A stretch of 64,000 nucleotides of DNA from Centroscyllium fabricii (Eukaryota): NCBI GenBank assembly GCA_051313645.2, contig JBNRSN020000012.1, positions 177,444,001 to 177,508,000 of the forward strand, in the 5' to 3' direction. The position numbers and the translations under genes are program-made. Of this stretch, positions 8,951-64,000 are shown piece by piece. Position 1 is the stretch's first letter. Every line of letters begins with the position of its first letter. A model generated the notes under the pieces. The model was not told where the DNA came from, ran no database searches, and worked only from the letters and a program-made list of their open reading frames with translations.

Positions 8951-9373
8951 TAGGGTCTGATGAAAGGGAGGAACTGAAAGAAATCAGTATTTGTAGGGAA
9001 ATGGTGTTAAGGAAATTTACAGGATTGAACGCTGGAATCTGGAACAGTACCCATGGATGGAGGGTAGCTAATGTTACCACTGTAGAACTGCAAGCACTCA
9101 AAAGAATACACAGAGACAGAGCTAAAGGGAAAACACAACTTTACTCTAAGAATTCAAAACCTGGAAGAGGCAGAACCACGATGTATCAACATATTCAAAA
9201 AACTGTCCCGCCGTTGGTGACGTCATCACGTCCACCGACGTGGTGACGCAACCGCATCACGTGGGTGATCGAGCTGCGCTCCGCGGAGCCCCGTTGGCGG
9301 ATTCGTAGTCCCAGCGGGTGTGCCGCTACACAGCTCCCCCCAGAATCCGTCCGGGAGAAATAAATTGCCGTGT

Positions 9374-12300: not shown

Positions 12301-13195
12301 TGCTGGACCCGTTGGCTGCCGCTAGTGGCGGGCCGCGGGTGCCTCGTTTGGTTTCTGCGGGGGAGGCTGGCACGATGCTGTGCTGCGCGCCTGTGTCGCA
12401 GAGGAACCTGAGGCCGGTGCCGCTGTCGGTGGCGAAGAGGAGTGCTCCTGTGTGGCCTACCGACATGGTGGAGGCTGAGTTAGGTTTAAACGTGCACGGC
12501 TGGACGCAGCGGTGCGCTTTGTGCTCAAACCGCGTGTGATAATAGCACCAGCCGGTGCTAGAGGGACGCGGTTGTCTGGGCGGGCGTGGGGCCTTGGGTT
12601 CGGGCGTAAAATTGTGCCCGGGGGCCGAATAGTTGCGCTCTACCGATGCTGAGTTGGGAGCGCACGTGGTAGAGCTGGTGCGCTGCGCCGCCATAAGCCT
12701 GTCGGCTTCCTCGCCGAGTTCGTCGTCGCTAAGGTGGGCTAGGGCTGCCAGGGCAGGTCTGATTGCGCGGGGCAATTTGAGGAGAAAAACCGTGCGAAAT
12801 AGGGTGGCAGGGTTGGGAGTAAGCGCCTGCATCTGACCTAGCAGGTCCGATGGGTCGGTGTCCCCGAGCTCGGGGAGGTCGAGGAGTTGGCAGTCGCGCT
12901 CGAACTGGGAAGGGGTAAACTTCTTAATCAGCGCGGCCTTAAGTGTTTCGTACCTGCCTACGGAGGGCACGCGCTGGATCGTTGACCACATCCTATCGAC
13001 GGTCGTTTGGGGCAGAGCTGTGAAGACCAAGTCGTAGCGGTCGTCCCCGTTGACGCCATTTGAACGGCAGCTGGCTTCTATGCAGCTAAACCAGGCCGCT
13101 GGCCGTTGCTCCCAGAACTCAGGCAAAACAAGTCCGCGCCCGGTGTTCCGTCCAGCCCCCTGTGATCGTGGAGCTTGGTTCCTTGGTTTGGACAT
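9374..13195 (-). CDS. Gag-Pol polyprotein of element A (1273 aa from the first ATG after the PBS)
   Basis: Gag LPEFW..PAAWF and CYYH-x9-C-x3-C (CHCC) motif; protease DTGA; RT YLDD; RNase H TDAS/TDHKPL/ADCLSR; integrase HHCC, D,D,E (HIDLVG, SDRG, LCERF); GPY module. Confidence 0.93.
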
Positions 13196-13243
13196 TTTTA
13201 AATGCTGCAGCTCTTCTTCACTGGACTGGAAGTCGTTCCAGTT

Positions 13244-13256
13244 GTCGGGGTCACCA
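13244..13256 (-). promoter_or_regulatory. Primer-binding site complementary to the 3' end of tRNA-Trp
   Basis: TGGTGACCCCGAC, 1 nt after the 5' LTR of element A; complementary to ...GUCGGGGUCACCA. Confidence 0.85.
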
Positions 13257-13681
13257 CTGTAGAACTGCAAGCACTCAAAAGAATACACAGAGACAGAGCT
13301 AAAGGGAAAACACAACTTTACTCTAAGAATTCAAAACCTGGAAGAGGCAGAACCACGATGTATCAACATATTCAAACTGTCCCGCCGTTGGTGACGTCAT
13401 CACGTCCACCGACGTGGTGACGCAACCGCATCACGTGGGTGATCGAGCTGCGCTCCGCGGAGCCCCGTTGGCGGATTCGTAGTCCCAGCGGGTGTGCCGC
13501 TACACCACACTATTCAAAAAGGGTGGTAGAGAGAAAGCGGGGAATTCCAGAAGGGTAAGCCTGACATCGGTAGTTTGGAAAATGCTAGAGTCCATTAGAA
13601 AGGATGCAATAGCTGAGCACTTGGGAAACAGTGACAGGATCGGATAAAGTCAACATGGATTTACAAAAGGTAAATCATGCT

Positions 13682-16600
13682 TGTGGTAAACCACTGTTTG
13701 TATATAGTTGCCTCTTGCCTGTATGTATACATGCCCGGGCATGCCTGAAGCTGACTTCGCCCCTAGCCTACCTGATATAGGCCCAAGCTCTGGGAGCCTG
13801 GCTCAGTACAAGGAGTCGCCATCAGTCTAAGGATGTTCCAGGGTTCTTAGTGAATAAAAGCCTCAGTTGTATTCTCAACCTCGTCTCGAGTATAATTGAT
13901 CACGCAGTTTTGAGATGGATGCTCTCCTGAAGCTATCCACCCTGGAACTCGACCCGAGCGCACCAGAGGCGCCGAGCAGCTTCTCCCACTGGCTAACCTG
14001 CTTCGAGGGATTCCTGACGACCTCCGCCAGCACTGTCCAGACAGACGTCCAGAAACTCTTGCTTCTGCAGTCACGGCTCCATCACCGGGTGTTTCAACTC
14101 ATCAAGGGAACGACCTCCTACACATCGGCGATGGCCCGCTTCAAGGAGCAGTACGAGCGGCCGACTAACACGGTTTACGCCAGGCACCTCCTGCTGACTC
14201 GCAAGCAACGGCCCGTGGAGAGTTTCGCTGGCTTTGTGCGGGCTCTGACAGAGCTCAGCAGAACCTGCAACTGTGAAACGGCCTCGGCAGATGAGCACAG
14301 GGAGCTGCTAGTCCGGGACGCCATCATCGCAGGCGTACAATTGGACTACACCAAGAAGAGACTGCTGGAACTGGGGAAACTGTCCCTGAAGAAGGCCACA
14401 GACATCGGACTCACACTCGAAGGGGCTGATCGGAGTATGGAGTCGTACGCACACATGGCCACCCCATGGACCTCGCGGGAGCCGCCAGCGTGGAACACGC
14501 CAGGCCCGGAGCCTTACGCCGTGCCACCTTCGCCTCACCCCGTGAACGGCACGACCACCGCGGCGGTGCCCTGGAGCCAGAAGTGCTATTTCTGTGGCCA
14601 AGTGAAACATTCCAGACAGCACTGTCCGGCGAAGGACGCTACGTGCACACGTTGCCAGAAGAAGGGACACCACGCAAGCGTCTGCAAGTCGTCCCCCAGG
14701 CCCAGCAGCGCCGCGTGCGAACCGACCTCGCGGCCATCTTTGACAACCCCCACCATGTGCGACTCATGGGGGCAGCCATATTGGATGCCTGCAGCCACAG
14801 ACCGACCCGGCTCCCCGACTGAATGCGATGAGCCACCAGCCCCGGTACTGGCTTCCGTCACCTTGGACCAGTCCGGGCCCCACCACCTCATAAAGTCGAT
14901 GATGGACGGCTGTGCCACGAACTGCCTGTTTGACTCGGGGAGCACGGCAAGCTTTATCCACCCCGATACGGTGCGACGCCTCTCGCTCTCCACTCGGCCC
15001 ATGCACCAGCGCATCTCCCTCGCATCCAAATCCCAGACCGCGGATGTCGACGGTTACTGCGTGGTAACGCTGTCGGTCAGCGGCGCAGTGTACAAGGATT
15101 TCAAACTCCTGGTCCTACCCAACCTCTGTGCGGCCGTCCTCCTGGGGTTAGACTTCCAAACCCACCTAAATAGCGTTTCGATGGCTTATGGTGGGCCCCT
15201 CCCCCCCCTCACTGTCTGCAGCCAGAAGACCTCAAACCGCCCACCGCGCGCCGTCTGCAGCCTCTTGATCCTCAAGGTCGCCCCTCTCCCACTGTTCGCT
15301 AACCTCACCCCAGACTGTAAACACATAGCCACCAAGAACAGGAGATACAGGGCTGGGGACAGGGCTTTCATCAAGTCCGAGGTACAGTGGCTCCTGCAGG
15401 AGGGGGTGATTGAGGCTAGCACCAGCCCCTGGAGGGCCCAAGTAGTCGTTGTTAAGACCGGTGAAAAGAACCGATTAGTTATCGACTACAGCCAGACCAT
15501 CAACCGCTTTACGCAGTTGGACGCGTACCCACTTCCCCGCATATCTAACATGGTCAATCAGATTGCGCTGTACAAGGTGTTCTCCACCATTGACCTGAGG
15601 TCGGCTTATCACCAACTCCCCATCCGCCCCGCGGTCCGCCGCTATACTGCCTTCGACTCTAATGGCAGCCTCTACCACTTCCTCAGGATCCCCTTCGGGG
15701 TCACCAATGGTGTCTCGGTTTTCCAACGAGATGGACCGTATGGTTGACCAGCACGGGCTGCTGGCCACGTTCCCGTAACTAGACAACATAACCATCTGCG
15801 GCCAGGACCTGCAGGACCATGACGCCAACCTGGCAAAATTCCTTCGCACGGCCCAATTCCTTAACCTCACCTATAACAAGGAGAAATGCATGTTCCGCAC
15901 AACACGCCTTGCTATCCTTGGCTGTGTCATGGAAAACGGGGTCATCGGTCCCGAACCAGAACACATGGCCCCCTCATGGAACTCCCCCATCCCCCATTGC
16001 CAAAAGGCCCTGTGAAGATGCCTGGGCTTCTTCTCCTACTATGCCCAGTGGGTCCCTAACTTTGCGGACAAGGCCCGCCCGCTCCTTAAGTCCACCTCCT
16101 TTCCCCTAACGACGGAGGCCTGTATGGCCTTCGACCGCATCAAACAGGACATCGCAAAGGCCACCATGCATGCGGTGGACGAAACCACCCCATTTCAGGT
16201 GGAGAGCGATGCGTCCGATTTTGCCCTGGCCGCCACCCTTAACCAGGCGGGCAGACCCGTGGCCTTCTTCTCACGAACCCTCCAAGGCCCCGAGACTAGA
16301 CACTCCTCTGTCGAGAAGGAGGCCCAGGCCATAGTGGAAGCTGTGCGCCACTGGAGGCATTACCTGGCCGGTCAACAGTTTACCCTGCTCACTGACCAGC
16401 ACTCAGTTGCTTTTATGTTCAGCAACAAGCAGCGGGGTAATATCAAAAACTACAAGATATTGAGGTGGAGAATTGAGCTCTCCACCTACAACTACGACAT
16501 CTTGTACCGGCCCGGGACGCTCAACGAGCCCCCAGACGCCCTCTCCCGGGGAACATGCACCAGCGCGCAGGTGGATCGACTGCGGTCCCTCCACAATGAC

Positions 16601-19600: not shown

Positions 19601-22512
19601 ACTGGTTGAGAGTGGCGGCCAGGGCAAAGTCAGAGGCATCACTTTCCACCTGGAACGGGGCGGATTCATCCACAGCGTGCATGGTCGCTTTGGCGATGGC
19701 TGCTCTGATGCTGTTGAAGGCTGCACGAGCCTCGTTCGACAGGGGAAAGGAGGTGGATTTCAGGAGGGGGCGGGCTCTGTCAGCGTACTGGGGGACCCAT
19801 TGGGCATAGTTCGAAAAGAAGCCCAGGCACCTTTTCAGGGCCTTCGGGCTCTGGGGGAGGGGGAGCTCCATGACGGGGCACATGCGTTTGGGGTCCGGGC
19901 CGATGACCCCGTTTGCCACGATGCACCCCGGATGGTGCGGAATACACATTTTTCCTCATTGTAAGTGAGGTTGAGGAGCTTGGCGGTGTGGAGGAATTTG
20001 GCCAGGTTGGCATCGTGGTCCCTCATGTCGTGGCCACAGATTGTCGAGGTAACGGAAGGTAGCCAGCAGCCCGTTTTGGTACAGCATCCGGTCCATCTCC
20101 CGCTGGAAGACTGACACGCCGTTGGTGACCCCGAAAGGGACCCTCAAAAAGTGGTAGAGGCGGCCATTCGCCTCAAAGGCGGTGAAGTGGCGGTCTACAG
20201 GGTGGATGGGGAGCTGATGGTATGCCGACTTAAGGTCAATTGTAGAGAACACCCTGTACTGCGCAATCTCATTGACCATGTCTGAGATGCGAGGCAGGGG
20301 GTATGCGTCCAATTGGGTGAAGCGGTTGATCGTCTGGCTGTAATCGATGACCAGGCGGTGTTTGGTGCCGGTCTTGACAACCTGGGCTCTCCCAGGGCTG
20401 TTGCTGGCCTCGGTGATCCCCTCCTTCAGTAACCGCTGGACCTCAGACTTTTTAAACAGTCTGCCCCCTGTGCTGTAGCGCCTGCTCTTGGTAGCTATGG
20501 GCTTACAGTCGGGGGTGAGGTTAGCAAATAGTGAGGGAGGGGAGACTTTAAGGGTCGAAAGGCTGCAAACGGTGTGGGGTTCGCGCTGCGCGAACTGCTG
20601 GCTACAGACAGTCAACGGGGGGAGGGGACCGCCGTATTTCATGATAACGCTGTCGAGGTGGCTCTGAAAGTCAAGGCCCAGTCGGACGGCAGTGCAGAGG
20701 TGGGGGAGGACTAATAGTTTTAAATGGTTGTACACGGTACCCCACACTTTCAATGTTACTACACAAATCCCACCGACTTCCACCGACATGGCGTTGGAGG
20801 CCATTAGGATCCGCTGGCGCGTGGGGAGTACCATGAAGGAAAGCCTCCGTACAGTGTCCGGGTGTATGAAACTTTCGGTACTCCCCGAATCAAAAACGCA
20901 ATTAACCGTACAGCCGTTTACCTCAATGTCCATTTTCGATCGCGCCAGTTGGTGAGGCCGGGTCTGGTCCAGTGTTATCGATGCGAGCTGCGGGAGCTCC
21001 ATCGTCAGGCGTGGTGATGTCCACTGGTCGCACGCGGCTGAGTAGGCCTCAAGATGGCCGCCCTGTGGGAGAAAACGTGGTGCTGGTCCAAGATGGCTGC
21101 CCCCGTATTCACTGTGTGGAAGGGGGGAGGGTGCAATATGGCCGTCCGATCCAAGAAGGCCGCTGCCACAGTCGCCATGTGGGGTGAGTGCTGGTTGCCC
21201 CAAAATGGCCGCTCTGATGGAGCGCATGCGGCGCTGCTGGAGGGGGATGGTCTGCTCTTACAGATTGCTGCATAGTGTCCCTTTTTCTTGCAGCTGGAGC
21301 ACAGCGCTTCTTTAGCAGGGCAGCGCTGCCTGGGGTGTTTTGACTGTCCACAGAAATAGCACTTCTGGGGTCGGGCCGCTGCCGCGGACGTGAGTGGGGG
21401 CGCAGCGGTGGTCATCTCGCCCGCCCACGAGGTCAGCGCTCGCGCACCATGTTGGTCGTAGGACTCTCTTTGCAAGTGCGCAGCCTCCAGCGATTTTGCC
21501 AGTGCTTCAGCTGCCGCCAGGCCTATGTTACTTTGCTCCAGCAGCCGCTGGCGCGTATAGGATGACCTGAGTCCAGCCACTAGCGCATCCCTAATGATTA
21601 TGTCCTGGTGCTCGTTGGCTGTCAGCGGCCTACAATTGCAGGCGTGCACGAGCGTTCGCAACGCTGCCATATAGTTCATTAAAGACTCACCAGGCTGTTG
21701 TTTCCTGTTTAACAGTAGATGCCTGGTGTAGATCTCGTTCGTTGGTATCGTGAACCGAGCTTTTAGGGCGTCCAGGGCGCTCCTGTAGGTCGTTTCGCCC
21801 TCGATGAAGCTGAAGAGCTCAGGGCTGACCTGAGCCCGCAGGACGTTGAGCTTCCTCTGGTCTGTGTCCACGGTCAGGCGGGATTCCGCGGGGAAGGCTT
21901 CGAAGCAGGACACCCAGTGTGTAAAGGCCCGCTCAGCGCCTGCTGATCGCAGGACGAAGTTGAGTCTTTCGGGCCTCAGGAACTTCTCCATCCTCTTTGT
22001 AAAAAACTATGTGAATAAAATTGATGCACAATCAATTACGCCAGTCGATGATTAGATGTAATCGAGGCTTTTATTCACATGGAACTGGACACAGGTCCGA
22101 CGATCTTCCAAGCCAAAGTGAGAGCACTCAGGTGTGCTCTCACTTTTATACCCAGTGGGCGGAGCCTGGGGAGGAAGCCGAGGAGCGGAGTCCTCCCAGG
22201 CGAGTCCTCCCTGGCAGGGAGACGTTACGTGCAGTTACAGGGAGGGGACACAAGGGGGAGACATATATATACGACATACAGTGGTTTACCACACACTGTT
22301 TGTATATAGTTGCCTCTTGCCTGTATGTATACATGCCCGGGCATGCCTGAAGCTGACTCTGCCCCTAGCCTACCTGATGTAGGCCCAAGCTCTGGGAGCC
22401 TGGCTCAGTACAAGGAGTCGCCAGCCAGTCTAAGGATGTTCCAGGGTTCTGAGTGAATAAAAGCCTCAGTTGTATTCTCAACCTCGTCTCGAGTATAATT
22501 GATTGCGGATCA
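13682..22512 (+). mobile_element. Element B: degenerate Mag-like Gypsy retrotransposon; 3' LTR interrupted by element C
   Basis: 5' LTR 13682-~13900; 3' LTR 17726-17740 plus 22294-22512. TSD ATGCT/GTGCT. Gag with two CCHC knuckles, protease DSGS and RT (13915-15747); RNase H-integrase (16124-17581). Frameshifts and stops present. Confidence 0.92.
17741..22293 (-). mobile_element. Element C: degenerate Mag-like Gypsy retrotransposon inserted in the 3' LTR of B
   Basis: LTRs 17741-18014 and 22022-22293. TSD GACTG/CACTG. Gag 21005-21991, PR-RT 19956-21227, RNase H and integrase fragments 18429-19949. Confidence 0.92.
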
Positions 22513-31400: not shown

Positions 31401-31759
31401 ATGGTAAACCAGATCGCCCAGTACAAGGTCTTTTCCACAATTGACCAACTCCCCATCCGGAAATCCGACCGCCAGTACACCGCCTTCGAGGCGAACGGCC
31501 GGCTCTACCACTTCCTCCGGGTCACCTTCGGTGTGACCAACGGAGTGTCGGTGTCCCAGAAGGGATGGACCGTATGGTTGACCAGAACGGGTTGCAGGCC
31601 ACCTTCCCCTACCTGGACAACGTGACCATCTGCGGCCATGACCAGCAGAACCATGATGCCAACCTCGCCAAATTCCTGCACAAGGCAAAACGGCTGGATC
31701 TCACGTACAATAAAGACAATTGTGTCTTTAGTACGGATCGGCTCGCTATCCTTGGATAC

Positions 31760-34700
31760 TGTGGTAACCGTTATTGTACATAGTTTTACCACCACAATAT
31801 TGTTGCCAATATTGCCTGTATAAGATAACCATGTTGCAACACTGTCGTGGAGCCGGGTCAGCCACACCTCTAACTCCTCCCCCAGGTGAGGCCCTTTATA
31901 GGTGAGGACTGACCGGGCTCACTCATTCTGTTCCTGTTTGTTCGTTCGGAGTATAGCTCCAAAGTAAGTCAATAAAAGCCTGTAGTTTAAGGTCACCACT
32001 CGTCTTTGACTTTATTGAGTAAATTGACGATACGTCAATTTTATTGACTTAAAAATTTGAAATGGAGAGCGGCGCGGTAAAGCCAGAGAAGCTGGACACC
32101 AGTCCACAGGACCCAGCCGCCGCCACTACGTTCGAACACTGGTTCGGTCTCCTGGAGGCCTACATGGACGCCGCCAAGGCTACAACCGACGGGAACAAAC
32201 TACAAGTTCTCCGGTCTAGGATCTCCAGCCGAGTATTCTCCCTCATCCGAGACGCCAAAACCTACCCAGTGGCTGTGGAAAAACTGCGGAAATGCTACGA
32301 GCGCCCGGTCCACTCGGTCTACGCCAGACATGTGCTCGCGACCAGACCACAACTGCCGGGTGAGTCCAACGAACAATTCGAGCAGGCACTCCAGGCCCTG
32401 GTACGGGTCTGTGGCTGCCAACCACGGACAGCAGAGGAGGAGGCGAATCTTCTCATCCGTGATGCCTACGTAACAGGCCTAAGGTGCGTTGAGGCCCGCC
32501 AGCGGCTGCTTGAGAAAGACTCTTTAACCTTAGAGGAGGCGATCTCCATATCGAACTCGGTAGAAGGGGCACACAACAAGCTGCAGGCGTACAGCGGCTC
32601 AAACCCGCAGGTCTATGATGCGTGGGCCGCGCCACAACGGGCCCAGGCCTGGGCAGCACAACAACGGGTCAAGACCCCCACGATGGCAGCGACAGCCGCA
32701 AAGGTGCAGGCGGACAGACGGTGCTACTTCTGCAGCCAGGGACTGCATCCACGGGCGAGATGCCCAGCGAAGACCGCGACCTGTGAGAGGTGCTCCAAAA
32801 AGGGACACTATGCGAAGGCCTGCAGATCAGCACCAGCAGCGCCCAACTCCAGGTACAACAGCGCAGCCTGTGAAAGCTCCACCAGGCCTCAGGTAAGCTG
32901 CAATAGCAGCGCGATCCAGCGACGGTCCGGGGGTAGAAGAAAAGCGCCCCCATCTCCCACCCTGATGCAGCAAAGGCCGGCTGCACCCAAGGCACGCCAA
33001 GCTCAGCCACGGCCAGCCAAGCGTGACCCCCCCCAACGCCAGCAGCACACCCAGCGCGGTCCGCTGCGTGCGAACCACGGGCACCGTCAACCCAACCACC
33101 ACAGCTCGCGTGCGAACCACGGGCACCACCAACCCAGCCACCGCGGCCCGCTGCGTGCGAACCACGGGCGCTGCCAGCGCGCTCACAGCGGTCAGCCGCG
33201 TGCGAACCACGGGCACCGCCATCTTGTCTCCAGCGCCCCGCCATGTGCGAACCACAGGCGTCGCCATCTTGTGTACAGCCCCAACCAGCAGGGGGCCCCC
33301 ACACACAGATGCACACTTCGGCCTCAGCCATACCTAAAGTCGACCAAGCTAGGCCACACACCCTATCGAACTCGATCATGCCGATCAAAATTAACGGCCA
33401 TATTACAAATTGCCTGTTCGACACTGGAAGCACAGAGAGCTTCATCCACCCCGATACAGCGCAGCGCTACGGACTGCAGATCCTGCCCACGCGATACCAA
33501 GTCTCCCTTGCTTCACAGACCCACACCGCGGACGTCACCGGCTACTGCTCCGTCACGCTCACAGTCAAGGGTTGTGTGTACTGTAACTTTAAGTTGTACA
33601 CCCTCAAGCAGTTGTGCGCCCCAGCCTTACTAGGTCTGGATTTCCAGTGCCACCTCAAGAGCGTGACAATGGAGTTCGGCGGGACCCTGCCCCCCCTCAC
33701 CGTCAGTAGCCGGGACAGTCCCTTCCCAAAGCGGAGCCCGGCCTGCGACCTCTCCACCCTGAAAATCGACCCCCCCTCACTGTTCGCCAATCTCGACCCC
33801 AACTGCAAGCCTATTGCTACTAAGAGTCGGCGGTATAGTGTGGGGGATCGCACGTTTATTAGGTCGGAGGTCGGGCGTATGCTGAAGGAGGGGATAATTG
33901 AAGCCAGCACCAGCCCCTGGCGGGCCCAGGTAGTAGTGGTGAAGACTGGCGAGAATCAGCGGCTGGTTATCGACTACAACCAGACTATTAAACGCTACAC
34001 GAGGCTCGACGCCTCCCCCCTCCCCCGCATCTTGGACATGGTCAACCAGATCGCCCAATACAAGGTGTTCTCCACGATCGACCTTAAGTCGGCGTATCAC
34101 CAACTCGCGATCTGGAAAGCTGACCGCCCGTACACCGCCTTCGAGGCGAACGGTCGGCTCTACCACTTCCTCCGGGTCCCCTTCGGCATGACCAACGGAG
34201 TATCGGTATTCCAGCGGGAGATGGACCGCATGGTTGACCAGAACGGGTTGCGGGCCACCTTCCCTTAACTGGACAACGTGACTATCTGCGGCCATGACCA
34301 GCAGGACCACGATGCCAATCTGGCCAAATTCCTTGACACGGCGGAAAGGCTGGACCTTACGTATAACAAAGATAAATGTGTCTTTAATACAGATCGGCTC
34401 GCCATCCTCGGATACGTGGTGGAGAATGGGGTCCTCGGCCCCGACCAACAGCGTATGCGCCCATTGCAGGAACTGCCCCTTCCTCACAACCCCAAAGCCT
34501 TGAGGAGATGCCTAGGATTTTTCTCCTACTACGCACAATGGGTCCCACAGTTCGCGGGCAAGGCTAGACCACTCCTCAAGGCTGCCGTCTTCCCCCTCTC
34601 GGTAGCAGACCAAACGGCATTTGCCCGGATAAAGGAAGACATTATCAAGGCGACCATGCACGCCGTTGATGAATCCATACCTTTCCAGGTGGAGAGTGAC

Positions 34701-36530: not shown

Positions 36531-36996
36531 GATACGTGGTGGAAAACGGTGTCCTCGGCCCCGACCCACAGCGTATGCGCCCCTTGCAAGAGCTGCCCTT
36601 ACCTCACAACCACAAAGCCCTGAGGAGATGTCTAGGGTTCTTTTCTTATTACGCGCAATGGGTTCCCCAGTACGCGATAAGGCCAGACCTCTCCTCAAGG
36701 CCGACGTCTTCCCCCTCTCGGAAGAAGCCCAAACGGCATTCGCTCGGATTAAGGAAGACATCATCAAGGCGACCATGCACGCCATTGATGAGTCCATCCC
36801 TTTCCAGGTGGAGAGTGACGCTTCGGACTTCGGCCTTGTCGCCACCCTGAACCAGGCAGGCAGGCCCGTAGCGTTTCTCTCCCGGACCCTACAGGGCCCC
36901 GAAACTCGCCACTCAGCAATGGAAAAGGAGTCCCAGGCCATCGTGGAGGCAGTGCACTACTGGCGTCATTACCTGGCCGGTAAGCATTTTACCCTG

Positions 36997-39900
36997 TGTG
37001 GTAACCCATATTGTATATACGATTACCACTGTAATATTGTCGCCAACATTGGCTTTGTATGATACACCGCTTTGTAACACTGTCGTGGAGCCAGGTCAGC
37101 CACACCTCTAACTCCTCCCCCAGGTGAGTCCTTTATAGGTGAGGACTGACCGGGGCTCCCTCATTCTGTTCTGATGTTCGTTCGGAGGGCAGCTCCAAAG
37201 TAAGTTAATAAAAGCCTATAGTTACGGTAACTATTCGTCTAGTCTTTTATTAAGACAAATTGACGATACGTCAATTTTATTAACTTAAAAATTTTGAAAT
37301 GGAGAGCGGCGCGGTAAAGCCAGAGAAACTGGACATCAGTCCACAGGACCCAGCCGCCGCCACCACGTTCGAACACTGGTTCGGTCTCCTGGAGGCCTAT
37401 ATGGACGCCGCCAAGGCTACAACCGACGAGAACAAATTGCAGGTTCTCCGGACTAGGATCTCCAGCCGAGTATTCTCCCTCATCCGAGACGCCAAAACCT
37501 ACCCAGGGGCAGTGGAAAAGCTGAGGAAATGCTACGAGCGCCCGGTCCATTCGGTCTACGCCAGACATGTGCTCGCGACCAGACCACAACTATTGGGTGA
37601 GACTAATGAACAATTTGAGCAAGCGCTCCAGGCCCTGGTACGGGTCTGTGGCTGCCAAGCCCGGACAGCAGAAGAGGAGGCGAATCTCCTCATCCGAGAT
37701 GCGTATGTAACTGGCCTGAGGTGCGTGGAAGCCCGCCAGCGGCTGCTCGAAAAGGACTCTTTGACTCTTGAGGAGGCGATCTCCATAGCTAACTCCGTTG
37801 AAGGAGCACGCAATAAGCTGCAGGCGTACAGCGGCACAAACCCGCAGGCCTATGACATGTGGGCTGCGCCACAACGGGCCCAGGCCTGGGCAGCACCACA
37901 ACGGGTCGAGACCCCCACGATGGCTGCGACAGCCGCAAAGGACAAACGATGCTATTTCTGCGGCCAGGGACTGCACCCACGAGCGAGATGCCCAGCGAGG
38001 ACCGCGACCTGTGAGAGGTGCTCCAAAAAGGGACACTATGCGAAGGCCTGCAGATCAGCACCAGCAGCGCCCAACTCCAGGTACAGCAGCGCAGCCTGTG
38101 AATGCTCCGTCAGACCTCAGGTAAGCTGCAATAGCAGCGCGATCCAGCGACGGTCCGGGGGTAGAAGGAAAGCGCCCCCATCTCCCACCCTGATGCGGCA
38201 AAACCCGGCCAAGCGCGACCCCCCAACGCCAGCAGCAGACCCAGCGCGGCCCGCTGCGTGCGAATCACGGGCACCGCCAACCCAACCACTGCGGCTCGCT
38301 GCGTGCGAACCACGGGCACCGCCAACCCAGTCACCGCGGCCCGCTGCGTGCGAACCACGGGCGCCGCCAGCGCGCTCATAGCGGTCAGCCGCGTGCGAAC
38401 CACAGGCACCGCCATCTCGTCTCCAGCGGCCCACCATGTGCGACCCCCCGGCGCCGCCATCTTGTCTCCAGCGGCCCGCCATGTGCGACCCCTCGGCGCC
38501 GCCATTTTGTCTCCAGGGCCCCACCATGTGCGAGCTAGGGGCGCCGCCATTTTGTGTACAGCCCCAACCAGCAGGGGGCCCCCACACACAAAGGCACACT
38601 TCGGCCTCAGCCATACCCAAAGTGGACCAGGCTAGGCCACACAACCTTTCTAACTCAATCATGCCGATTAAAATTAACGGCCATATTACCATTTGCCTGT
38701 TTGACACTGGAAGCACGGAGAGTTTTATACACCCCGATACAGCGCAGCGCTATTGGCTGCAGATCCTGCCCACGAACTACCAAGTCTCCCTTGCTTCGAA
38801 GTCCCACACCGCGGACGTCACCGGCTACTGCTCCGTCACGCTCACGGTCAAGGGTTGCGTGTACCGTAATTTTAAATTGTACACCCTCAAGCAGTTGTGT
38901 GCCCCAGCCTTACTAGGTCTGGATTTCCAGTGCCACCTCAAGAGCGTGACAATGGAGTTCGGCGGGACCTTGCCCCCCATCACCGTCAGTAGCCGGGACA
39001 GTCCCTTCCCAAAGCGGAGCCCGGCCTGCGGCCTCTCCACCCTGAAAATCGACCCCCCATCACTGTTCGCCAACCTCGACCCCAAGTGCAAACCTATTGC
39101 TACAAAGAGTCGGCGGTACAGTGTGGGGGATCGCACGTTTATCAGGTCGGAGGTCAGGCGTATGCTGAAGGAGGGGATAATTGAAGCCAGCACCAGCCCC
39201 TGGCGGGCCCAGGTAGTAGTGGTGAAGTCTGGCGAGAAACAGCGGCTGGTTATCGATTACAGCCAGACTATCAACCGCGACACCGGGCTCGACGCCTACC
39301 CCCTCCCCCGCATCTCGGACATGGTCAATCAGTTCGCCCAATATAAGGTGTTCTCCACGATCGACCTTAAGTCGGCGTATCACCAACTCCCGATCCGGAA
39401 AGCCGACCGCCCGTACACCGCCTTCGAGGCGAACGGTCGGCTCTACCACTTCCTCCGTGTCCCCTTCGGCATGACCAACGGAGTGTCAGTGTTCCAACGG
39501 GAGATGGACCGCATGGTTGACCAGAACGAGTTGCGGGCCACTTTCCCTTACCTGGACAACGTGACCATCTGCGGCCATGACCAGCAGGACCACGATGCCA
39601 ATCTGGCCAAATTCCTTGACACGGCAGATAAGCTGGACCTTACGTATAACAAGGACAAATGTGTCTTTAATACAGACCGGCTCGCCATCCTCGGATACGT
39701 GGTGGAGAACAGGGTCCTCGGCCCCGACCGACAGCGTATGCGCCCCCTACAAGAACTGCCCCTACCTCACAACCCCAAAGCCTTGAGGAGATGCCCAGGA
39801 TTTTTCTCCTACTACGCACAATGGGTCCCACAGTTCGCGGACAAGGCTAGACCACTCCTCAAGGCTGCCGTTTTCCCCTCTCGGTAGAAGCCCAAACGGC

Positions 39901-41827
39901 ATTCGCCCGGATAAAGGAAGACATCATCAAGGCGACCATGCTCGCTATTGATGAATCCATTCCCTTCCAGGTGGAGAGCGACGCTTTGGACTTTGCCCTT
40001 GCTGCCACCCTGAATCAGGCAGGCAGGCCCGTATCGTTTTTCTCCCGCACCCTGCAGGGACCCGAAACTCACCACTCTGCAGTGGAAAAGGAGGCCCAGG
40101 CCATCGTGGAGGCCGTGCGCTACTGGCGTCATTACCTGGCCGGTAAGCGTTTTACCCTTCTTAACGACCAACGGTCGGTGGCGTTTATGTTTAATAATAA
40201 ACAGAAGGGTAAGATCAAGAATGATAAGATCCTGCGGTGGCAGATCGAACTCTCGACTTACGAGTACGACATTCTTTACCGACCAGGTAAACTCAATGAA
40301 CCCCCGGACGCACTGTCCAGGGGAACGTACGCCAGTGCCCAGCTAGACTGGCTGAAGGACCTCCACGACCGCCTTTGCCACCCGGGTGTCACCAGACTCG
40401 CCCACTTTGTTAGATCCCGTAGCCTCCCCTACTCCATCACGGAGATCAAGGCTATGACCCGAGAGTGCCTTGTTTGCGCCGAGTGCAAACCCCAATTTTT
40501 CCGGCCAGACACGGTGCACCTCATTAAGGCCACCCGCCCCTTTGAACGTCTAAGCGTGGACTTCAAAGGCCCCCTCCCCACCACCGACCGCAACTCATAC
40601 TTCCTCACGGTCGTAGATGAGTTCTCCCGCTTCCCCTTCGCCTTCCCCTGCGCAGATATGACGAGCGCAACTGTGATAAAACACTTCACCACGCTGTTCG
40701 CCATTTGCGGTCTCCCCAGCTACATCCATAGCGACCGGGGGTCATCGTTCATGAGCGATGAACTGCGTCAGTTTCTGCTCCAGAAAGGGGTTGCCACGAG
40801 CAGAACGACCAGTTATAACCCCCGGGGGAACGGCCAGGTAGAAAGGGAGAATGGGATCATCTGGAAGGCGTTCACCCTGGCCCTGAAGTCCAGAGGCCTT
40901 CCAGTGGCCCATTGGCAGGCAGTCCTCCCAGATGCGCTGCATTCAATACGCTCTCTCCTGTGCACAGCCACTAACGCCACCCCTCATGACTTGATTTTTT
41001 CCTTCCCCAGGAAGTCGACTTCGGGGACAGCTCTTCCTCCATGGCTCACGACACCGGGGCCGGTCTTCCTTAGGAGACACGTCCGTGGCCACAAGACCGA
41101 CCCCCTGGTGGACAAGGTGCAGCTCCTGCACGCGAATCCGCAATATGCCTTCGTGCAGTTCCCGGACGGGCGCGATGACACCGTATCCATCAGGGACCTG
41201 GCGCCCGCCGGGAGCACCACAGCAGAGCCCCTGGACGGGCAGCAGCCCGCCCAGCCACAGTATCTAGAACACCCCCTACGTCTACGATGGCCTCCGAGGT
41301 TTCCAGAGCCCCAGCCGTGGCCAGCCCAAGACCACCATTCCGATGGCTCGGACCAATTGAGACCACCAGCATCCGAAATCACGGCACCAGAGCCGCTGTC
41401 ACCACCACCGGACTCGCGCAGTACGGAACACGATGAACCTTTATCGGAGCCCCGGCGGTCCTCCAGGCTGACACGACTGCCGGACAAGCTCAAAATGAAC
41501 TGCTGTGTCCATTCACCCCGCCGGACTTAAAATTTTCAAGAAGGGGTGAATGTGGTAACCCATATTGTATATACGATTACCACTGTAATATTGTCGCCAA
41601 CATTGGCTTTGTATGATACACCGCTTTGTAACACTGTCGTGGAGCCAGGTCAGCCACACCTCTAACTCCTCCCCCAGGTGAGGCCTTTATAGGTGAGGAC
41701 TGACCGGGGCTCCCTCATTCTGTTCTGATGTTCGTTCGGAGGGTAGCTCCAAAGTAAGTTAATAAAAGCCTATAGTTACGGTAACTACTCGTCTAGTCTT
41801 TTATTAAGACAAATTGACGATACGTCA
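36997..41827 (+). mobile_element. Element F: full-length Mag-like Gypsy retrotransposon nested in the RNase H of D; close relative of E
   Basis: LTRs 36997-37273 and 41551-41827. Perfect TSD CCCTG. ORFs 37299-38381, 38436-39887, 39938-41530. Confidence 0.94.
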
Positions 41828-43255
41828 CCCTGCTCACCGACCAATGGTCGGTGGCGTTTATGTTTAATAATAAACAACGGGGTAAGATCAAGAATGATAA
41901 GATCCTGCGGTGGCGGATCGAGCTCTCGACTTACAAGTACGACATTCTTTACCGTCCAGGCAAACTCAATGAACCCCCGGACATACTGTCCAGGTGAACA
42001 TGCGCCAGCGCCCAGCTTGACCGGCTGAAGGCCCTCCACGATCACCTCTGCCACCCGGGTGTCACCAGACTTGCCCACTTCGTCAAATCCCGTAGCCTCC
42101 CCTACTCCATCACGGAGATAAAGGCTATGACCAAAGAGTGCCCTGTCTGTGCCGAGTGCAAACCCAAATTTTACAGGCCAGACACGGCGCACATCATCAA
42201 GGCCACCCGCCCCTTTTAACACCTGAGCGTGGCCTTCAAAGGCCCCCTCCCCTCCACTGACCGCAACTCGTATTTCCTCAAGGTCATTGACGAGTTCTCA
42301 CGCTTCCGCTTCGCCTTCCCCTGCCTAGACATGATGAGCGCAACGGTGATCAAACACTTCACCACGCTGTTCGCCATTTTCGGTCTCCCCAGCTACATCC
42401 ATAGTGACCGGGGTTCGTCGTTCATGAGCGACGAACTGCGTCAGTTTCTGCTTCAGAAAGGGGTTGCCTCAAGCAGAACGACCAGTTACAACCCCCGGGG
42501 GAACGGCCAGGTAGAAAGGGAGAACGGGACCATCTGGAAGGCGGTCAACCCGGGCCTGAAGTCCGGATGCCTTCCAGTTTCCCGTTGGCAGGCGGTCCTC
42601 CCAGACGCGCTCCATGCCATCCACTCTCTGTTGTGTACCACTACTAATTCAACACCTCACGACCTGTTATTTTCCTTCCCCAGGAAGTCGACTTCGGGGA
42701 CAGCACTCCCGCTGTGGCTCACAGCGCAGGGGCCGGTGTTGCTTAGGAAACACGTCCGCGGCCACAAGACCGATCCCCTGGTGGAACGGGTGCACCTGCT
42801 CCATGCCAACCCGCAGTATGCTTACGTGACATTCCCGGACGGGCGCGAGGACACAGTCTCGATCAGGGACCTGGTGCCCGCCGGGAGCACTAGGGCAGAA
42901 CCCCCGGTCGAGCCTCAGCCCGACCATCCGCCACCCACCGAATACTGGCCCCCATACATACACACACCGGGGCCCTCAACACCACCGATCAACGACCCGG
43001 GATCGGACACCGCACCGCCGGCACCGTTGGCGGAGAGCCCGATCCCGGCCCTGCAACCGGCACCACCACCGTTAGCAGGTCCTCGAGGCATACGCGACCG
43101 CCAGAGAGACTAATAGCGCAGTGCTGATTGCGTCTAACGGACATATTAAAAAAAAAAAAATTCTCTTCTTCTTCTCTCGTTCACCCCGCCGGACTTGTTT
43201 TTAAAGAAGGGGTGAATGTGGTAACCGTAATTACCAGTGTATATATATGGATGTG

Positions 43256-44835: not shown

Positions 44836-46980
44836 TGATGCGCAAATCAATCACGCCAGTCTTTGGTGAAAAGTAATTGAAGGCTTTTATTAGCTAAGAA
44901 CTAGACCTGGTCCGCGATGAGTCCGCCCGGAATGAGAGTCAGGTGGGCGGAGCATCCTCCTTTATACTCATACCCGGAGGCGGGGTCAGCTGGTCCAGAT
45001 CCTTACAGAAAAGAACAGATTTATTAGCACAAACTATATACAATAATAGCACAGTGTGAACCACACTAAATGGTTCACCACATTCACCCCTTCCTTAAAA
45101 AACAAGTCCCGCGGGGCGAATATCAGCACTGCGTTATCAGTCTTTGAGGAGGTCAAACAGTCCGAGAAGATCTGCGAAGCAGTGGTGATTCACATGAATA
45201 GGCGTGAGTAGTCGCAATCGAAAAAGACGCTGATGGGGCTCCCGACGTGAACAGGGACTCCACCAGTGGAAGAGGAGGCTCATGCGCAGGAAGATCTGGT
45301 GGAGGTGTAGCAGCCGCCGGAAGAGTAGGTTGAGCAGCGTGATGAACTCCGTCGTGCATTGTAGGTGACAAGGACCCCGATGTAGTGTGCGCCGGTGAAT
45401 TAAAAGAAGGCCCCTGTTGTGGAAGTGCGACCTGGCAGGGCAAGGGCTCCGCCAACAACTCCACGTGAACGTCTCCAGCGGGCGCGAGGTCCCTAATCAA
45501 GACGGTATCCTCACGCCCGTCTGGGTACTCCACGTAAGCATACTGAGGGTTGGCATGCAGCAGGCGCACACGTTCAACAAGGGGGTCCATCTTGTGCCCA
45601 CGGGCATGATTCCGAAGCAGAACCGGCCCCGGGTTGGTAAGCCACGTAGGCAGAGACGTCCCCGAAGTCGATTTCCTGTGGAAAGAGAAGAGTCTCTCGT
45701 GAGGAGTGCAACCGGTAGCTGTACACAAAAGGGAACGAGTAGCGTGGAGCGCATTCTGGAGGACCTCCTGCCAGTGGGAGGTTGGAAGGCTTTTGGATCG
45801 AAGGGCCAGAGCAATGGCCTTCCAGATGGTCCCATTATAACGTTCTACCTGCCCATTCCCCCGGGGGTTGTAACTGGTCGTTCTGCACGAGGCAACCCCC
45901 CTCGCGAGCAGAAAATTACGCAGTTCGTCGCTCATAAATGAGGACCCCTCGTCGCTGTGTACGAAGCTGGGGAGGCCGAAAATGGCGAATAGGGTGATAA
46001 AATGCTTTATAACTGTTGCACTCGTCATATCTGGGCATGGGAATGCAAAAGGGAAACGGGAGAACTCGTCGACCACAGTGAGGATGTACGAGTTACGATT
46101 GGTAGAGGGGAGGGGACCTTTGAAGTCCACGCTCAGGCGCTCGAATGGGCGGGTGGACGGGAGATGGACCGAATGGTCGACCCCCGGGTGGCAGAGGTCA
46201 TTGTGCAGGGTTTGGAGACGTTCACGTGGAGTTGTTGGTGGAGCCCTTGCCCTCCCAGGTCGCATGTCCACAACAGGGGCCTTCTTTTGGGAGTGGGAAG
46301 GAGGTAGCTCTGAGGAGAGGCCGGGCCTTATCAGCATAATACGAGAAAAACCCCAGGCATCTCCTCAAAGATTTGGGGGAGTGCAGCAGGGGCAGCTCCT
46401 GAAGGGGGCGCATACGTTCGGGGTCGGGGCCGAGGACCCCATTCTCAATTACGTAGCCGAGGTTAGCCAACCGGTTAGAGTTGAAAACACACTAATCCTC
46501 ATTGTAAGTGAGGTTCAGACGCTGGGCCGTACGGAGAAACCTGTCCAAATTGGCATGGCCGCAGATCGTGACATTGTCCAAATACGGGAATGTGGCCTGC
46601 AAATGGTAATGGTCAACCATTCGGTCCATCTCCCGTTGGAAGACCGAAACTCCGTTGGTAACCCCAAAGGAGACCCGGAGGAAGTGAAAAAGGTCGATGG
46701 TGGAGAAGACCTTATACTGAGCAATCTGGTTGACCATATCATTTATCCTAGGAAGCGGATAAGCGTCGAGCCCAGTGTAGCGGTTAATGGTCTGACTATA
46801 GTCAATGACCATGCGCTGTTTGTTGCCCGACTTAACCACTACCACCTGGGCCCGCCACGGGCTGTTACTGGCCTCGATGATGCCCTCCCGCAACAACCGG
46901 GCAACCTCTGCCTTAATAAAGATGCGGTCCCCCGCGCTGTATCGCCTACTCTTAGTTGCAATGGGCTTGCAGTCAGGGTC
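44836..46980 (-). mobile_element. Element G: 5'-truncated, internally deleted and rearranged Mag-like Gypsy element, same subfamily as J
   Basis: 3' LTR 44836-45082 and PPT; integrase 45153-46150; RT fragment 46300-46980. Closely similar to 60900-63870. Confidence 0.9.
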
Positions 46981-47208: not shown

Positions 47209-50200
47209 TGTGGTAACCGTATTACCACTTGTATATAGTTACATGTATAGTTGCGGGTGCATTGGCAGGACTTGTACACTGTGGGGTCACTTATGTATAG
47301 ATACTGTATGTAAGGCCAGGTCAGCCACACCTCTAACTCCTCCCCTCAGGTGGGAGCTTATAGGTAAGGTCTGCCCTGCCCCCGTTCATTCTCGCCTTGT
47401 GCTCAACGGAGACTAGCTCCATTATAAAGTTAATAAAAGCCTGTAGGTAACTACTCGTCTTTTGTATTATTGACGATATGTCAATTTTATTAACATTATT
47501 TATAAAATGGAGAGTAATGCAGTGAAACCGGACAGACTGGATATAAATCCACAAGAACCAGACGCTGCTAACGATTTCGAACATTGGTTCGGCCTAGTCG
47601 AGGCCTACATGAAGGCCGCAAAGGCAACGAGCGACAGGGACAAACTGCAGGTCCTCTCATCAAGAATCAGCAGCCGGGTGTATTCCTTCATCTGCGGCCT
47701 CACGACATACACGGAGACGGTGAAAAAGTTGAAGGACTGCTACTTGCGCCCGGTCCACTCGGTCTATGCCAGCCATGTACTGCTGACCAGACAACAGCGA
47801 CTCAACGAGTCGAATGAACAATTCCTTTTAGCGCTTCAAGACCTCGCACGGGCCTGCAACTGCCAGCCAAGAACGGCGCAGGAGGAGATGAATCTCCTCG
47901 TATGGGATGCATATTTGGCTGGAATCAGGTCCAATCAGGCCCGCCAGCGGCTGCTGGAAAAGGACACTCTGTCGCTGGAAGAGGCGATCTCGATTTCGAA
48001 TGCGGTGGACGGAGCGCGCCGCAAGCTAGAGGCGTATGGCGGACAAGACCCACATGATACCCTCGATCCCTGGGCGCCACCATGATGGGTCGAGACCCCC
48101 ACGATGGCAGCGGCAGCTGCGAAGACGCCGGCAGGGCGAAAGTGCTACTTATGCGGCCAGGGACAGCACCCGCGAGAGCAATGCCCCGCGAGTAGCGCGA
48201 CCTGCGAGCGGTGCACCAAAAAGGGACACTACGCCAGAGCTTGCAAGTCGACCCCAGCGTCCAGCTCCAGACCCAACAGCGCGGCCTGCGAGAACTCCAA
48301 CGCCATCCCATGGCCTAAGGTAACATGTTGCAGCGCGACCCAGCAGCGGTCCGGGGGTATATCGCGGGCGCTTCAGTCCCCCATATCTGTACGGCCATGT
48401 GCGACCCCCGGCACCGCCATCTTGTCCACCGCGGTCAGCCGCGTGCGAACCACGGGTGCCGCCATTTTGTCCTCAACAGCTGGACTCAAACGTGCTGCCA
48501 GCGCCGCCATCTTGTGAGCGGCGATCCTGCCAACTGCCCAGGCTGGGGCCCCAGCTAGCGAGGGCCCCCATACACACACAGACACCTCGGCCTCAGCCAT
48601 TGTTGACCAGGCTAGGTCGTACACCCTATCAAATTCTATGATGGCGATTAAAGTGGACGGGCACATTACTAACTGCCTGTTCGACACCGGAAGCACAGAG
48701 AGCTTCAACCACCCCGACACAGTGCGGCGCTACGTACTGCAGACCCAGCCCACGCACTACCAAATGCTCCCTCACGGTCAGGGACTGCGTGTACCGCAAT
48801 TTCAAGCTGTACATCCTCCAGCAGTTGTGCGCCCCAGTCTTACTGGGACTGGATTTCCAGTGCCACCTGAAGAGCGTGACAATGGAGTTCGGCGTGACCC
48901 TGGCCCCCCTCACCGTCAGTAGCCGGGACAATCCCTTCTTAAAGCGGAGCCCGACTTGCGGCCTGTCCACCCTGAAAGTCGACCCCCCCTCGCTGTTCGC
49001 CAAACTCGACCCCAATTGCAAACCTATTGCTACGAAGAGTCGGCGTTACAGTGCAGGGGACTGGGCATTTATCAGGTCGGAAGTCGGGCGTATGCTGCAA
49101 GAGGGGATAATTGAGGCCACCACCAGCCCCTGGCGGGCCCAGGTCTTAGTGGTTAAGACCAGCGAGAAACTGCGCATGGTCATTGACTACAGCCAGACGA
49201 TTAACCGCCACACCGGGCTCGACGTCTATTCCCTTCCACGCATCTCGGGTATGGTTAACCAGATCGCCCAGTACAAGGTCTTTTCAACAATCGACCTCAA
49301 GTCGGCGTATCTCCAACTCCCGATCCGGAAATCTGACCGCCAGTACACCGCCTTTGAGGCAAATGGCCGGCTCTACCACTTCCTCCGGGTCCCCTTCGGC
49401 GTGACTAACGGAGTGTCGGTATTCCAAAGGGAGATGGACCGTATGGTTGACCAGAACGGGTTGCAGGCCACCATCCCCTACCTGGACAACGAGACTGTGG
49501 TGATATTGAAACTTCCGGCAGAAAGTCGAATGAACTCTGCACATGTATTTCCTGTGACATCATTTCCTTTTTACATGTCACTTCCTGTATAAATGTCACT
49601 TCCTGTTTAGTGGTATAAGTTCTGCTGCTATCCAGTCTGGGATGATGCTTCCCGTGTAAGCATGTGAAACTCTAACTCTGTAAATCGTTGATTAAAGCTT
49701 TGCTTAGAGTTGTTCATGTGTAGGTCTCTTTTGTCACATCAGTGACCATCTGCGGCCATGAACAGCAGGACCACGATGCCAACCTTGCCAAATTTCTGCA
49801 CACGGCGAAACGGCTAGATCTCACGTACAATAAAGACAAGTGTGTCTTTAGTACAGATCGGCTCGCTATCCTCGGATACTTGGTGGAAAACGGGGTCCTC
49901 GGCCCCGACCCACAGCGTATGCGTCCCTTACAGGAACTGCCCCTACCTCACAACCCCAAAGCCCTGAGGAGATGTCTGGGATTTTTTTCCTATTACGCAC
50001 AATGGGTCCCCCAGTACGCAGATAAGGCCAGACCTCTCCTCAAGGCAGACGTCTTCACCCTCTCGGTAGAAGCCCAAACAGCATTCGCCCGGATTAAGGA
50101 AGACATTATCAAGGCGACCCTGCACGCCGTTGATGAGTCCATCCCTTTCCAGGTGGAGAGTGATGCTTCGGACTTTGCCCTTGCCGCCACCCTGAACCAG

Positions 50201-61600: not shown

Positions 61601-64000
61601 CATCGACCTTAAGTCGGCCTATCACCAGCTCCCCATCAGAGCTGAGGACCGTAAATGCACTGCCTTTGAGGCAAATGGGCGCCTTTTTCACTTCCTCCGG
61701 GCCCCTTTGGGGTTACCAATGGAGTTTCGGTCTTCCAACGGGAGATTGACCGAATGGCTGACCAGTACCATTTGCAGGCCACATTCCCATATTTGGACAA
61801 TGTCACGATCTGCGGCCATGATCAGCAAGATCACGATGCCAATTTGGACAGGTTTCTCCGTACGGCCCAGCATCTTAACCTCACTTACAATGAGGATAAG
61901 TGTGTTTTCAGACATGGGGAGAATGTGCAAACTCCACACAGATAGTACCCGAGGCTGGCTATCCTCGGCTACGTAATTGAGAACGGGGTCCTCGGTCCTG
62001 ATCCCGAACGTATGCGCCCCCTTCAGGAGCTGCCTCTGCCGCACTCCACCAAATCTTTGAGGAGATGCCTGGGGTTTTTCTCGTATTATGCACAATGGGT
62101 TCCCCATTATGCTGATAAGGCCCGGCCTCTCCTCAGAGCTACATCCTTCCCGCTCCCATTAGAGGCCTAAATTGCATTTTCACATATTAAGCAGGACATC
62201 ATCAAGGCAACCATGCACGCTATTGATGAGTCTCTCCCCTTTCAGGTCGAAAGCGACGCCTCAGACTTCGCCCTGGCCGCCACCCTCAACCAGGCAGGCA
62301 GGCCCGTTGCTTTCTTCTCCCGTACCCTACAGGGCCCTGAAGTCCGGCACTCTTCAGTGGAAAAAAAGAGGCCCAAGCAATTGTGGAAGCAGTGCGCCAC
62401 TGGCGCCACTATTTGGCCGGTAAGCGTTTTACTCTTCTTACTGACCAGCGGTCAGTAGCATTTATGTTCCACCATAAACAGAAGGGTAAGATCAAGAATG
62501 ACAAGATCCTCAGGTGGCAGATCGAACTCTCCGCCTTTGAGTATGACATTCTGTACCGGCCAGGGAAGCTTAATGATCCCCCGGACGCCCTGTCCCGAGG
62601 ATCGTGTGCCAGTGCCCAGTCTGGTAGTCTGAAGACCCTCCACGCTAATCTCTGCCACCCGGGGGTCACCAGGCTCGCTCACTTCGTTAAATCACGCAAT
62701 CTCCCTTATTCCATTGTGGAGATCAAGGCAATGACGCAGGAGTGCCCTGTCTGTGCTGGGTGCAAGCCCCAGTTTTACAGGCTTGACAGGGCGCACCTCA
62801 TCAAGGCCACCCGCCCATTCGAGCGCCTGAGTGTGGACTTCAAAGGTCCCCTCCCCTCTACCAATCGTAACTCGTACATCCTCACTGTGGTCGACGAGTT
62901 CTCCCGTTTCCCTTTTGCATTCCCATGCACAGATATGACGAGTGCAACAGTGATAAAGCATTTTATCACGCTATTCACCATTTTTGGCCTCCCCGGCTTC
63001 GTACACAGCGACCGGGGGTCCTCTTTTATGAGCGATGAACTGCGTCACTTTCTGCTCGCGAGAGGAGTTGCCTCGAGCAGAACGACCAGTTACAACCCCC
63101 GGGGGAATGGCCAGGTTGAGCGGTTTAATGGGACCATCTGGAAGGCCATTTCTCTGGCCCTTCGATCCAAAGGCCTTCCAATCTCCCACTGGCAGGAGGT
63201 CCTCCAGGATGCGCTCCACGCTACTCGTTCCCTTTTGTGTACAGCTACCGGTTGCACTCCTCACGAGAGACTGTTCTCTTTCCACAGGAAATCGACTTTG
63301 GGGACGTCGCTGCCGACGTGGCTTACCAACCCGGGGCCGGTCCTGCTTCGTAGACATGTCCGGGGGCACAAGACGGACCCTCTTGTTGAACATGTGCGCC
63401 TGCTGCATGCCAGCCCTCAGTACGCTTACGTGGAGTACCCAGACGGGCGTGAGGATACCGTCTCGATTAGAGACCTCGCGCCCGCTGGAGACGTTCATGG
63501 GGAGTTGTTGGCGGAGCCCTTGCCCTCCCAGGTCGCACTTCCACAACAGGGGCCTACTTTTTATTCACCGGCGCACATTACATCGGGGCCCTTGCCACCT
63601 ACAATGCACGACGGAGTACATCATGTTGCTCAACCTCCGGCGGCTGCTACACCTCCACCAGATCTTCCTGCGTATGAACCTCCTCTTCCACCGGTGGAGT
63701 CCCTGTTCACTTCGGGAGCTCCGTCAGCATCTTTTCCGATTGCGACTACTCACGCTTTTTCATGTGAATCGCCATTGGTTCGCAGGTCTTCTCGGACTGT
63801 TCGACCTCCTCAAAGACTGATAACGCAGTGCTGATGTTCGCCCTGCGGGACTTGTTTTTTAAGGAAGGGGTGAATGTGGTGAACCATTTAGTGTAGTTCA
63901 CACTGTGTTATTATTGTATATAGTTTGTGCTAATAAAGTTGTTCTTTTCTGTAAGGACCTGGACCAGCTGACCCCGCCTCCGGGTATGAGTATAAAGGAG
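58617..64000 (+). mobile_element. Element J: degenerate Mag-like Gypsy retrotransposon; 3' LTR runs off the window
   Basis: 5' LTR 58617-58847; 3' LTR starts 63875. Gag 58870-59756; PR/RT fragments; RNase H-integrase 62383-63834. Confidence 0.93.
61112..61520 (+). mobile_element. V-SINE (HE1-like) inserted in the RT of J
   Basis: Nearly identical to 43256-43650. Interrupts ATTAACCGC|TACACTGGG, which is contiguous in element G. No TSD. Confidence 0.93.

Follow-up and report, generated by a model that had tools for sequence, protein, structure and literature searches.

Reverse transcriptases (RTs) with a natural Asn at the second aspartate of the YxDD active site are known from one lineage of LTR retroelements, the nematode BEL/Pao elements, in which YVDN occurs in Cer7–Cer12 of C. 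elegans and in the hookworm Atlas element (PMC554778, PMC9094657); the accessible text of PMC9094657 treats YVDN as a distinguishing feature of nematode belpaoviruses, and that of PMC554778 leaves the activity of the YVDN enzyme undetermined. The same substitution at the same position has been engineered in Ty1 where, according to the accessible text of PMC2148107, D211N (but not D211E) keeps polymerization and dNTP binding, with kpol down 223-fold and transposition abolished, RNase H suppressors restoring only 5–10%; Ty3 RT is reported there to be similarly flexible at its active site. A preliminary description of the locus discussed here had stated that Asp-to-Asn blocks Ty1 transposition while polymerase activity stays, in agreement with this source. 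In contrast to the nematode elements, which are of another superfamily, the family that we describe belongs to a Ty3/gypsy clade in which D and N have switched repeatedly; a single genome holds more than 200 000 copies, and there is evidence of selection. Every sign points to massive transposition of this family, whereas Ty1 D211N needs RNase H suppressors to transpose at all. Asn for the third carboxylate is also found in motif C of other natural palm polymerases, as GDN in the Mononegavirales and ADN in birnavirus; unlike the elements here, these are RNA-dependent RNA polymerases in which the state is fixed and does not switch. Within a literature search that had subscription papers, Repbase, GyDB and some supplements outside it, we found no report of YLDN or YXDN in Ty3/gypsy, nor of a self-priming gypsy retrotransposon in a shark.

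The window (the whole stretch of DNA analysed, 64 000 nt from the shark Centroscyllium fabricii) contains eight copies of the family (B–H and J) and one neighbour, element A (Table 1). When the window sequence is read, the motif is (Y)LDN in 8/8 copies at the positions originally proposed, being YLDN in C, D, F, G, H and J and stop-LDN in B and E, and both Asn codons are used as had been claimed, AAC in B, D, E, F and H (5/8) and AAT in C, G and J (3/8). Since the motif aligns with the YLDD of Ty3 and the structure model of the copy F RT fits the Ty3 and MMLV RT folds, the Asn takes the position of the second YxDD aspartate. The model (pLDDT 86) matches Ty3 RT 4ol8 with Z 19.9 and rmsd 4.7 over 253 residues, a fold score tied with MMLV fragments, and Ty3 provides the top sequence matches among solved structures (E 5.5e-34). 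The canonical three-Asp site is not present; the third Asp is Asn and the other two are each kept in 48/51 copies. An assembly error is unlikely; the 40 differences listed in contigs of three public runs (out of 65 rows) take in position 39557, where the change is synonymous, but not 39558, the first base of the Asn codon in copy F. Element A had been offered as a contrast with a normal motif, and its YLDD is confirmed, but it is not a sister control, since an RT identity of only 32% places it in a different clade; in its GPY motif and its AANG flap it is similar to elements with CsRN1-type markers.

Copy F has the organization of a Ty3/gypsy element, with the order gag-PR-RT-RH-IN (PR-RT-RH-IN by Pfam), TG...CA LTRs, a polypurine tract and a target duplication, and its coding region is interrupted by one stop and one frameshift. 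Same-clade elements are densely nested over 13682–52020: D holds E and F, the 3′ LTR of B holds C, and the target duplications are 5 bp long. The ATTTTATT stretch is missing from copy B through deletion, which corrects an earlier note. In D, E, F and H the Gag-protease linker (38200–38560 in the window) is enlarged by short tandem repeats. Directly after the Asn codon of copy H lies a solo-LTR-like insert (49495–49741) with TG...CA ends, an ATTAAA signal and near-duplicated 5-bp flanks, whose 3′ end is like the LTRs of a second DN lineage (L160, see below). A 17-bp minisatellite of more than 80 units at 3700–5450 is open in several frames, and two adjoining frames tested gave no Pfam match.

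Table 1. Features of the window, in window coordinates
Feature	Position	Strand	Remarks
Element A, Ty3/gypsy	9073..13505	-	LTRs 98.5% identical
YLDD of element A	11489-11500	-	in 1318-codon open frame
Copy B	13682-22512	+	PBS region deleted; copy C within its 3′ LTR
Stop-LDN of copy B	15776..15787	+	TAA-CTA-GAC-AAC
Copy C	17741-22293	-	
YLDN of copy C	20040..20051	-	
Copy D	29054-43855	+	contains E and F
YLDN of copy D	31610..31621	+	
Copy E	31760-36530	+	LTRs 98.6% identical; target duplication GATAC
Stop-LDN of copy E	34266..34277	+	
Copy F, gag-PR-RT-RH-IN	36997..41827	+	inserted in copy D; 277-nt LTRs 98.9% identical; target duplication CCCTG
TATA-like box and initiator-like TCATTC of copy F	37132..37167	+	31 nt apart; predicted transcription start near 37163
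LTR segment ending AATAAAA, copy F	37201..37213	+	complementary to PBS position; predicted self-primer
PBS-position sequence, copy F	37275..37287	+	one base past LTR terminal CA; no tRNA-type TGG start
RT domain of copy F	39075..39857	+	Pfam RVT_1; structure model
Motif A catalytic Asp of copy F	39363..39365	+	kept; Asp in 48/51 genome copies
YLDN of copy F	39549..39560	+	Asn for second YxDD Asp; aligned to Ty3 YLDD
Polypurine tract of copy F	41538..41546	+	before 3′ LTR
YLDN of copy G	46573..46584	-	fragmentary copy
Copy H	about 47210-52020	+	
YLDN of copy H	49479..49490	+	
YLDN of copy J	61790..61801	+	

Beyond the window, Asn is fixed in the family. Across the whole genome (assembly 7.2 Gb) a 29-nt pattern, which recovers only 4/8 window copies, matched YLDN 214 286 times, YLDD 296, YLDS 464 and YLGN 822 times, and the reversed control pattern had no match, which puts the YLDN count far above chance; a looser pattern gave 234 789 DN versus 478 DD. 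Because YLDD, YLDS and YLGN are each a single A-to-G change from YLDN, YLDD stands at or below background. The loci fetched were picked by the DN pattern, which makes their Asn count circular, and the genome counts alone are free of this. The 30 YLDD copies fetched are spread over many subfamilies (11 changes on the tree), and the one all-DD cluster in that tree is put down to a thin sample of DN copies, its codon contexts being found as DN as well. Copies are thus overwhelmingly YLDN, and the intact YLDD consensus envisaged as a counter-case in the preliminary description was not what we found. The looser pattern brought up two further lineages: a second YLDN lineage (L160–L164, YLDNITVAG), with RT 57–59% identical to copy F and LTR pairs at 94–100%, and one genuine YLDD family of the same clade (L149–L157, L165–L168; 123 matches, DD in 96 of the first 100), 53–56% identical in RT, broken around RT in 13/13 sampled copies and with a longest frame of 543 codons; DD families with other flanking residues would escape the patterns used.

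We show, in addition, that purifying selection acts on RT, RNase H and integrase. In single-frame domain matches (51 RT, 47 RH and 39 IN copies) pairwise dN/dS is 0.35–0.48 at dS<0.1 and 0.05–0.11 at dS>1.5, the high values among near-identical copies reflecting the dominance of post-insertion decay, and the remaining catalytic residues of the three enzymes are kept in about 91–97% of copies. Recent insertions of the family exist: the 40 loci fetched gave 24 LTR pairs, one of them spurious (L105) and dropped, the other 23 being 89–100% identical with three at 100%, and open frames around YLDN reach 1460 codons. The family thus shows what is expected of an autonomous one, namely a pol under purifying selection, RH and IN whose catalytic sites are intact, and insertions of recent date, and the genome counts, identical LTRs and purifying selection uphold the original claim of repeated transposition by a clade whose natural site is DN. 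Since YLDN far outnumbers YLDD, the domains are under selection and the LTRs of some copies are identical, we consider it very likely that the family copied itself, in cis, with an RT carrying Asn and predicted to be functional.

Judged by its sequence, the family belongs to a wide animal Ty3/gypsy clade, in which the closest named homologues are from catsharks and rays and the named hosts include sharks, rays, corals, anemone, mussel, spider, insects and Trichinella. No relative was found in the viral contigs searched, and an atlas search returned generic RT clusters only; contigs filed in bacterial MAGs (L108–L118) carry these animal retrotransposons, likely through host contamination of the bins. 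The family was called Mag-like in the preliminary description, a label that is provisional, as its markers fit Cigr-1 as given in PMC2774666 at least as well as Mag. Like the Cigr-1 clade (Ciona; molluscs, annelids), the family has two CCHC arrays, integrase after RNase H, no GPY/F, no chromodomain and no env (PMC2774666), all markers of low specificity, and its host range is comparable, as far as the accessible parts of PMC6238403 and PMC8556966 describe it; unlike the TANG flap of Cigr-1, its protease flap is S/T-rich, mostly MAS or MAT followed by S/T, with LANG or MANA in 2 of the 17 rows listed. With the Mag lineage (A, B and C clades) it shares the two CCHC arrays, integrase after RNase H and the lack of env, but it has no tRNA-type PBS and a Mag-type GxV/I motif is not placed with certainty. 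The two CCHC arrays, present in 97/120 long homologues, are common to Mag and Cigr-1 and hence not diagnostic, and GPY/F is absent in 120/120, GPV occurring at a position of uncertain homology.

Both states of the active site are widespread in this clade. Among 240 homologues 184 are xxDN, 50 xxDD and 6 other, the 120 long ones dividing into 91 DN, 28 DD and 1 other and the 120 short ones into 93, 22 and 5. On quick IQ-TREE or FastTree trees (no bootstrap, direction of the switches not set, rows with neither DD nor DN left out), the minimum number of D/N changes with the site masked was 11 (6 forced; element A outgroup counted), 13 (12 forced) or 14 (10 forced), forced changes being those required by well-supported branches. 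The D/N site has, on these trees, flipped many times across the clade, with at least 10–13 switches, and amplified families occur in both states; ten large protein clusters are 3 DD-type and 7 DN-type among the members that show the motif. Among homologues with a named host, those with DD are from non-marine animals (spider, damselfly, psyllid, Trichinella) and those with DN from marine ones, a distribution that is not independent on the tree.

The family's primer-binding site (PBS) position is complementary to a segment of the element's own LTR, and self-priming is likely. In 28 genome copies the LTR and PBS segments pair at 13/13 positions in 20, at 12 in seven and at 11 in one (G-U allowed), the fold z for self-pairing is -3.5, and positions 8–13 pair at 5.75 of 6 with the own LTR versus 4.22 across elements. 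Two-sided changes occur at several positions (AATAAA to ATTAAA, for example, is matched in the partner), in covariation counts that take no account of relatedness. No tRNA gene lies within the 64-kb window. The TATA/initiator spacing is, by eye, equal in many subfamilies, and the predicted start suggests that the paired segment lies about 38 nt inside the RNA and would act as an internal primer. Tf1 and Tj1 are the nearest parallel, their PBS position being complementary to their own LTR-derived RNA rather than to a tRNA (PMC4600332, accessible text); unlike theirs, in which the primer is the RNA 5′ end, the predicted start here would be some 38 nt upstream of a paired segment bearing a poly(A) signal, and the copies here, set against Tf1/Tj1, have no chromodomain match in Pfam. 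Alternatively, the pairing could have no role beyond masking the 5′ poly(A) signal.

Our best account is that of an abundant Ty3/gypsy family with a YLDN RT that very likely copies itself, for which metal binding by two aspartates is predicted and priming by its own RNA is likely. The two remaining aspartates are predicted to hold the metals, and the isosteric Asn would keep enough of the role of the third residue, so that the third carboxylate may be a permissive Asp/Asn position in this clade. Considering the drop in kpol and the loss of transposition in Ty1 D211N, the shark clade must carry a background that removes or tolerates the cost. In the alignment of homologues no column co-varies strictly with the D/N state, and the six best columns fail the independent-pairs test (median p 0.22–1); the compensating residues that the preliminary description had proposed to look for did not emerge, none tracking the switch after tree correction. 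Tolerance may come from a clade-wide background older than the switches and not from a single partner residue. A weak candidate for such a background is the Thr two residues after the motif, found in 117/119 long homologues in both states (absent, as read by eye, from 7/93 short DN homologues) and Leu in Ty3 and element A. With either residue in the RT, the LTR segment ending AATAAAA would base-pair at the PBS position and yield the minus-strand primer on cleavage.

A refinement of this account is that Asn is favoured and not just tolerated, tuning rate, metal use or RNase H coupling, with reversion selected against. It is possible, although we hold it at less than even confidence. Despite saturated synonymous divergence there is no amplified DD subfamily in the main lineage; the third base of the Asn codon changes at least nine times on a 50-copy tree (one frameshifted row left out); all shark and ray homologues in the branch of the window are DN, and a 54-row branch has no DD at all. 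However, the nine changes are inflated, the 50 copies having been selected with the DN pattern and AAC-G being a CpG site, and in other parts of the clade D/N varies between close sisters and the DD clusters reach 444 and 242 members. The fullest joint reading, that a family ranking among the most prolific retrotransposons of a vertebrate genome, at roughly a tenth or more of the 7.2-Gb assembly, was built by a two-Asp RT in which Asn is actively preferred, using an internal self-RNA primer that bears the poly(A) signal, with one helix both hiding the 5′ poly(A) signal and supplying the primer, we regard as conceivable but unlikely to hold as a whole.

It had been proposed that Asn is co-adapted with the unusual priming, and this we consider quite improbable. 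Every DN element of the genome with an intact 5′ end that was examined has the pairing (the 5′ ends of window copies G and J left out), as do eight DN loci from other collections, but YLDD relatives carry the same 15-bp pairing, namely L111 from another collection and L151 and L166 from the small decayed family of this genome; because of this the priming mode and the Asn are not tied. The 13 loci of that family gave four LTR pairs, of which two pair over 15 bp and two are decayed. Of the 18 loci taken from other collections, L062, L066, L112, L115, L116 and L118 showed no self-pairing (the 5′ end being missing or rearranged in some), nor did L065 and L067, both of other clades; L117 carries it, its YxDD/DN motif unread. 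The nematode BEL/Pao elements, moreover, reached YVDN separately (PMC554778, PMC9094657, accessible text).

We also argue against YLDN copies being non-autonomous and moved in trans by a YxDD partner, a possibility raised from the start and one that we now hold to be very improbable. Each of the eight window copies is broken, the YLDD of element A lies in an open frame, and a genuine same-clade YLDD family is present; yet that family, the only amplified one of its kind that the patterns used brought up, comprises about 120 decayed copies, is about 1900-fold rarer, and makes a poor candidate helper because its RT is only 53–56% identical and all 13 sampled copies are broken. Additionally, the RT of a passenger should decay neutrally, whereas dN/dS is about 0.1–0.2 and the catalytic residues are kept.

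An origin of DN by post-insertion CpG decay of GAC-GAC, or an Asp restored by RNA editing or deamidation, has a negligible chance of being right: GAC precedes the Asn codon in all eight window copies, as decay would give, but GAT does so in 18/51 copies, GAT-AAY subfamilies without a CpG precursor (one with 3384 matches, the first 100 all Asn) rule decay out, and hardly any undecayed GAC-GAC exists, with the CpG o/e of the copy F RT standing at 0.89; edited RNA would be copied back as DD, yet DD stays at background, and deamidation is likewise rejected as a source of restored Asp, Asn before Val or Ile deamidating slowly.

Finally, a residue that is essential in Ty1 can, very likely, be dispensable in nature, and where the accessible text of PMC554778 left open whether a natural YxDN RT works, this genome provides strong evolutionary evidence that it does. 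Natural sister enzymes that differ in D/N are plentiful in the clade, one host even having families of both kinds, and they offer a way to probe the third carboxylate; a very large family would be misjudged by any annotation pipeline that treats YxDN copies as dead. At about 4.7 kb each, the 234 789 sites would amount to about 1.1 Gb or 15% of the assembly, a rough figure given that many copies are partial and that the strict pattern caught half of the window copies, and the family may for this reason be relevant to the large size of this genome.
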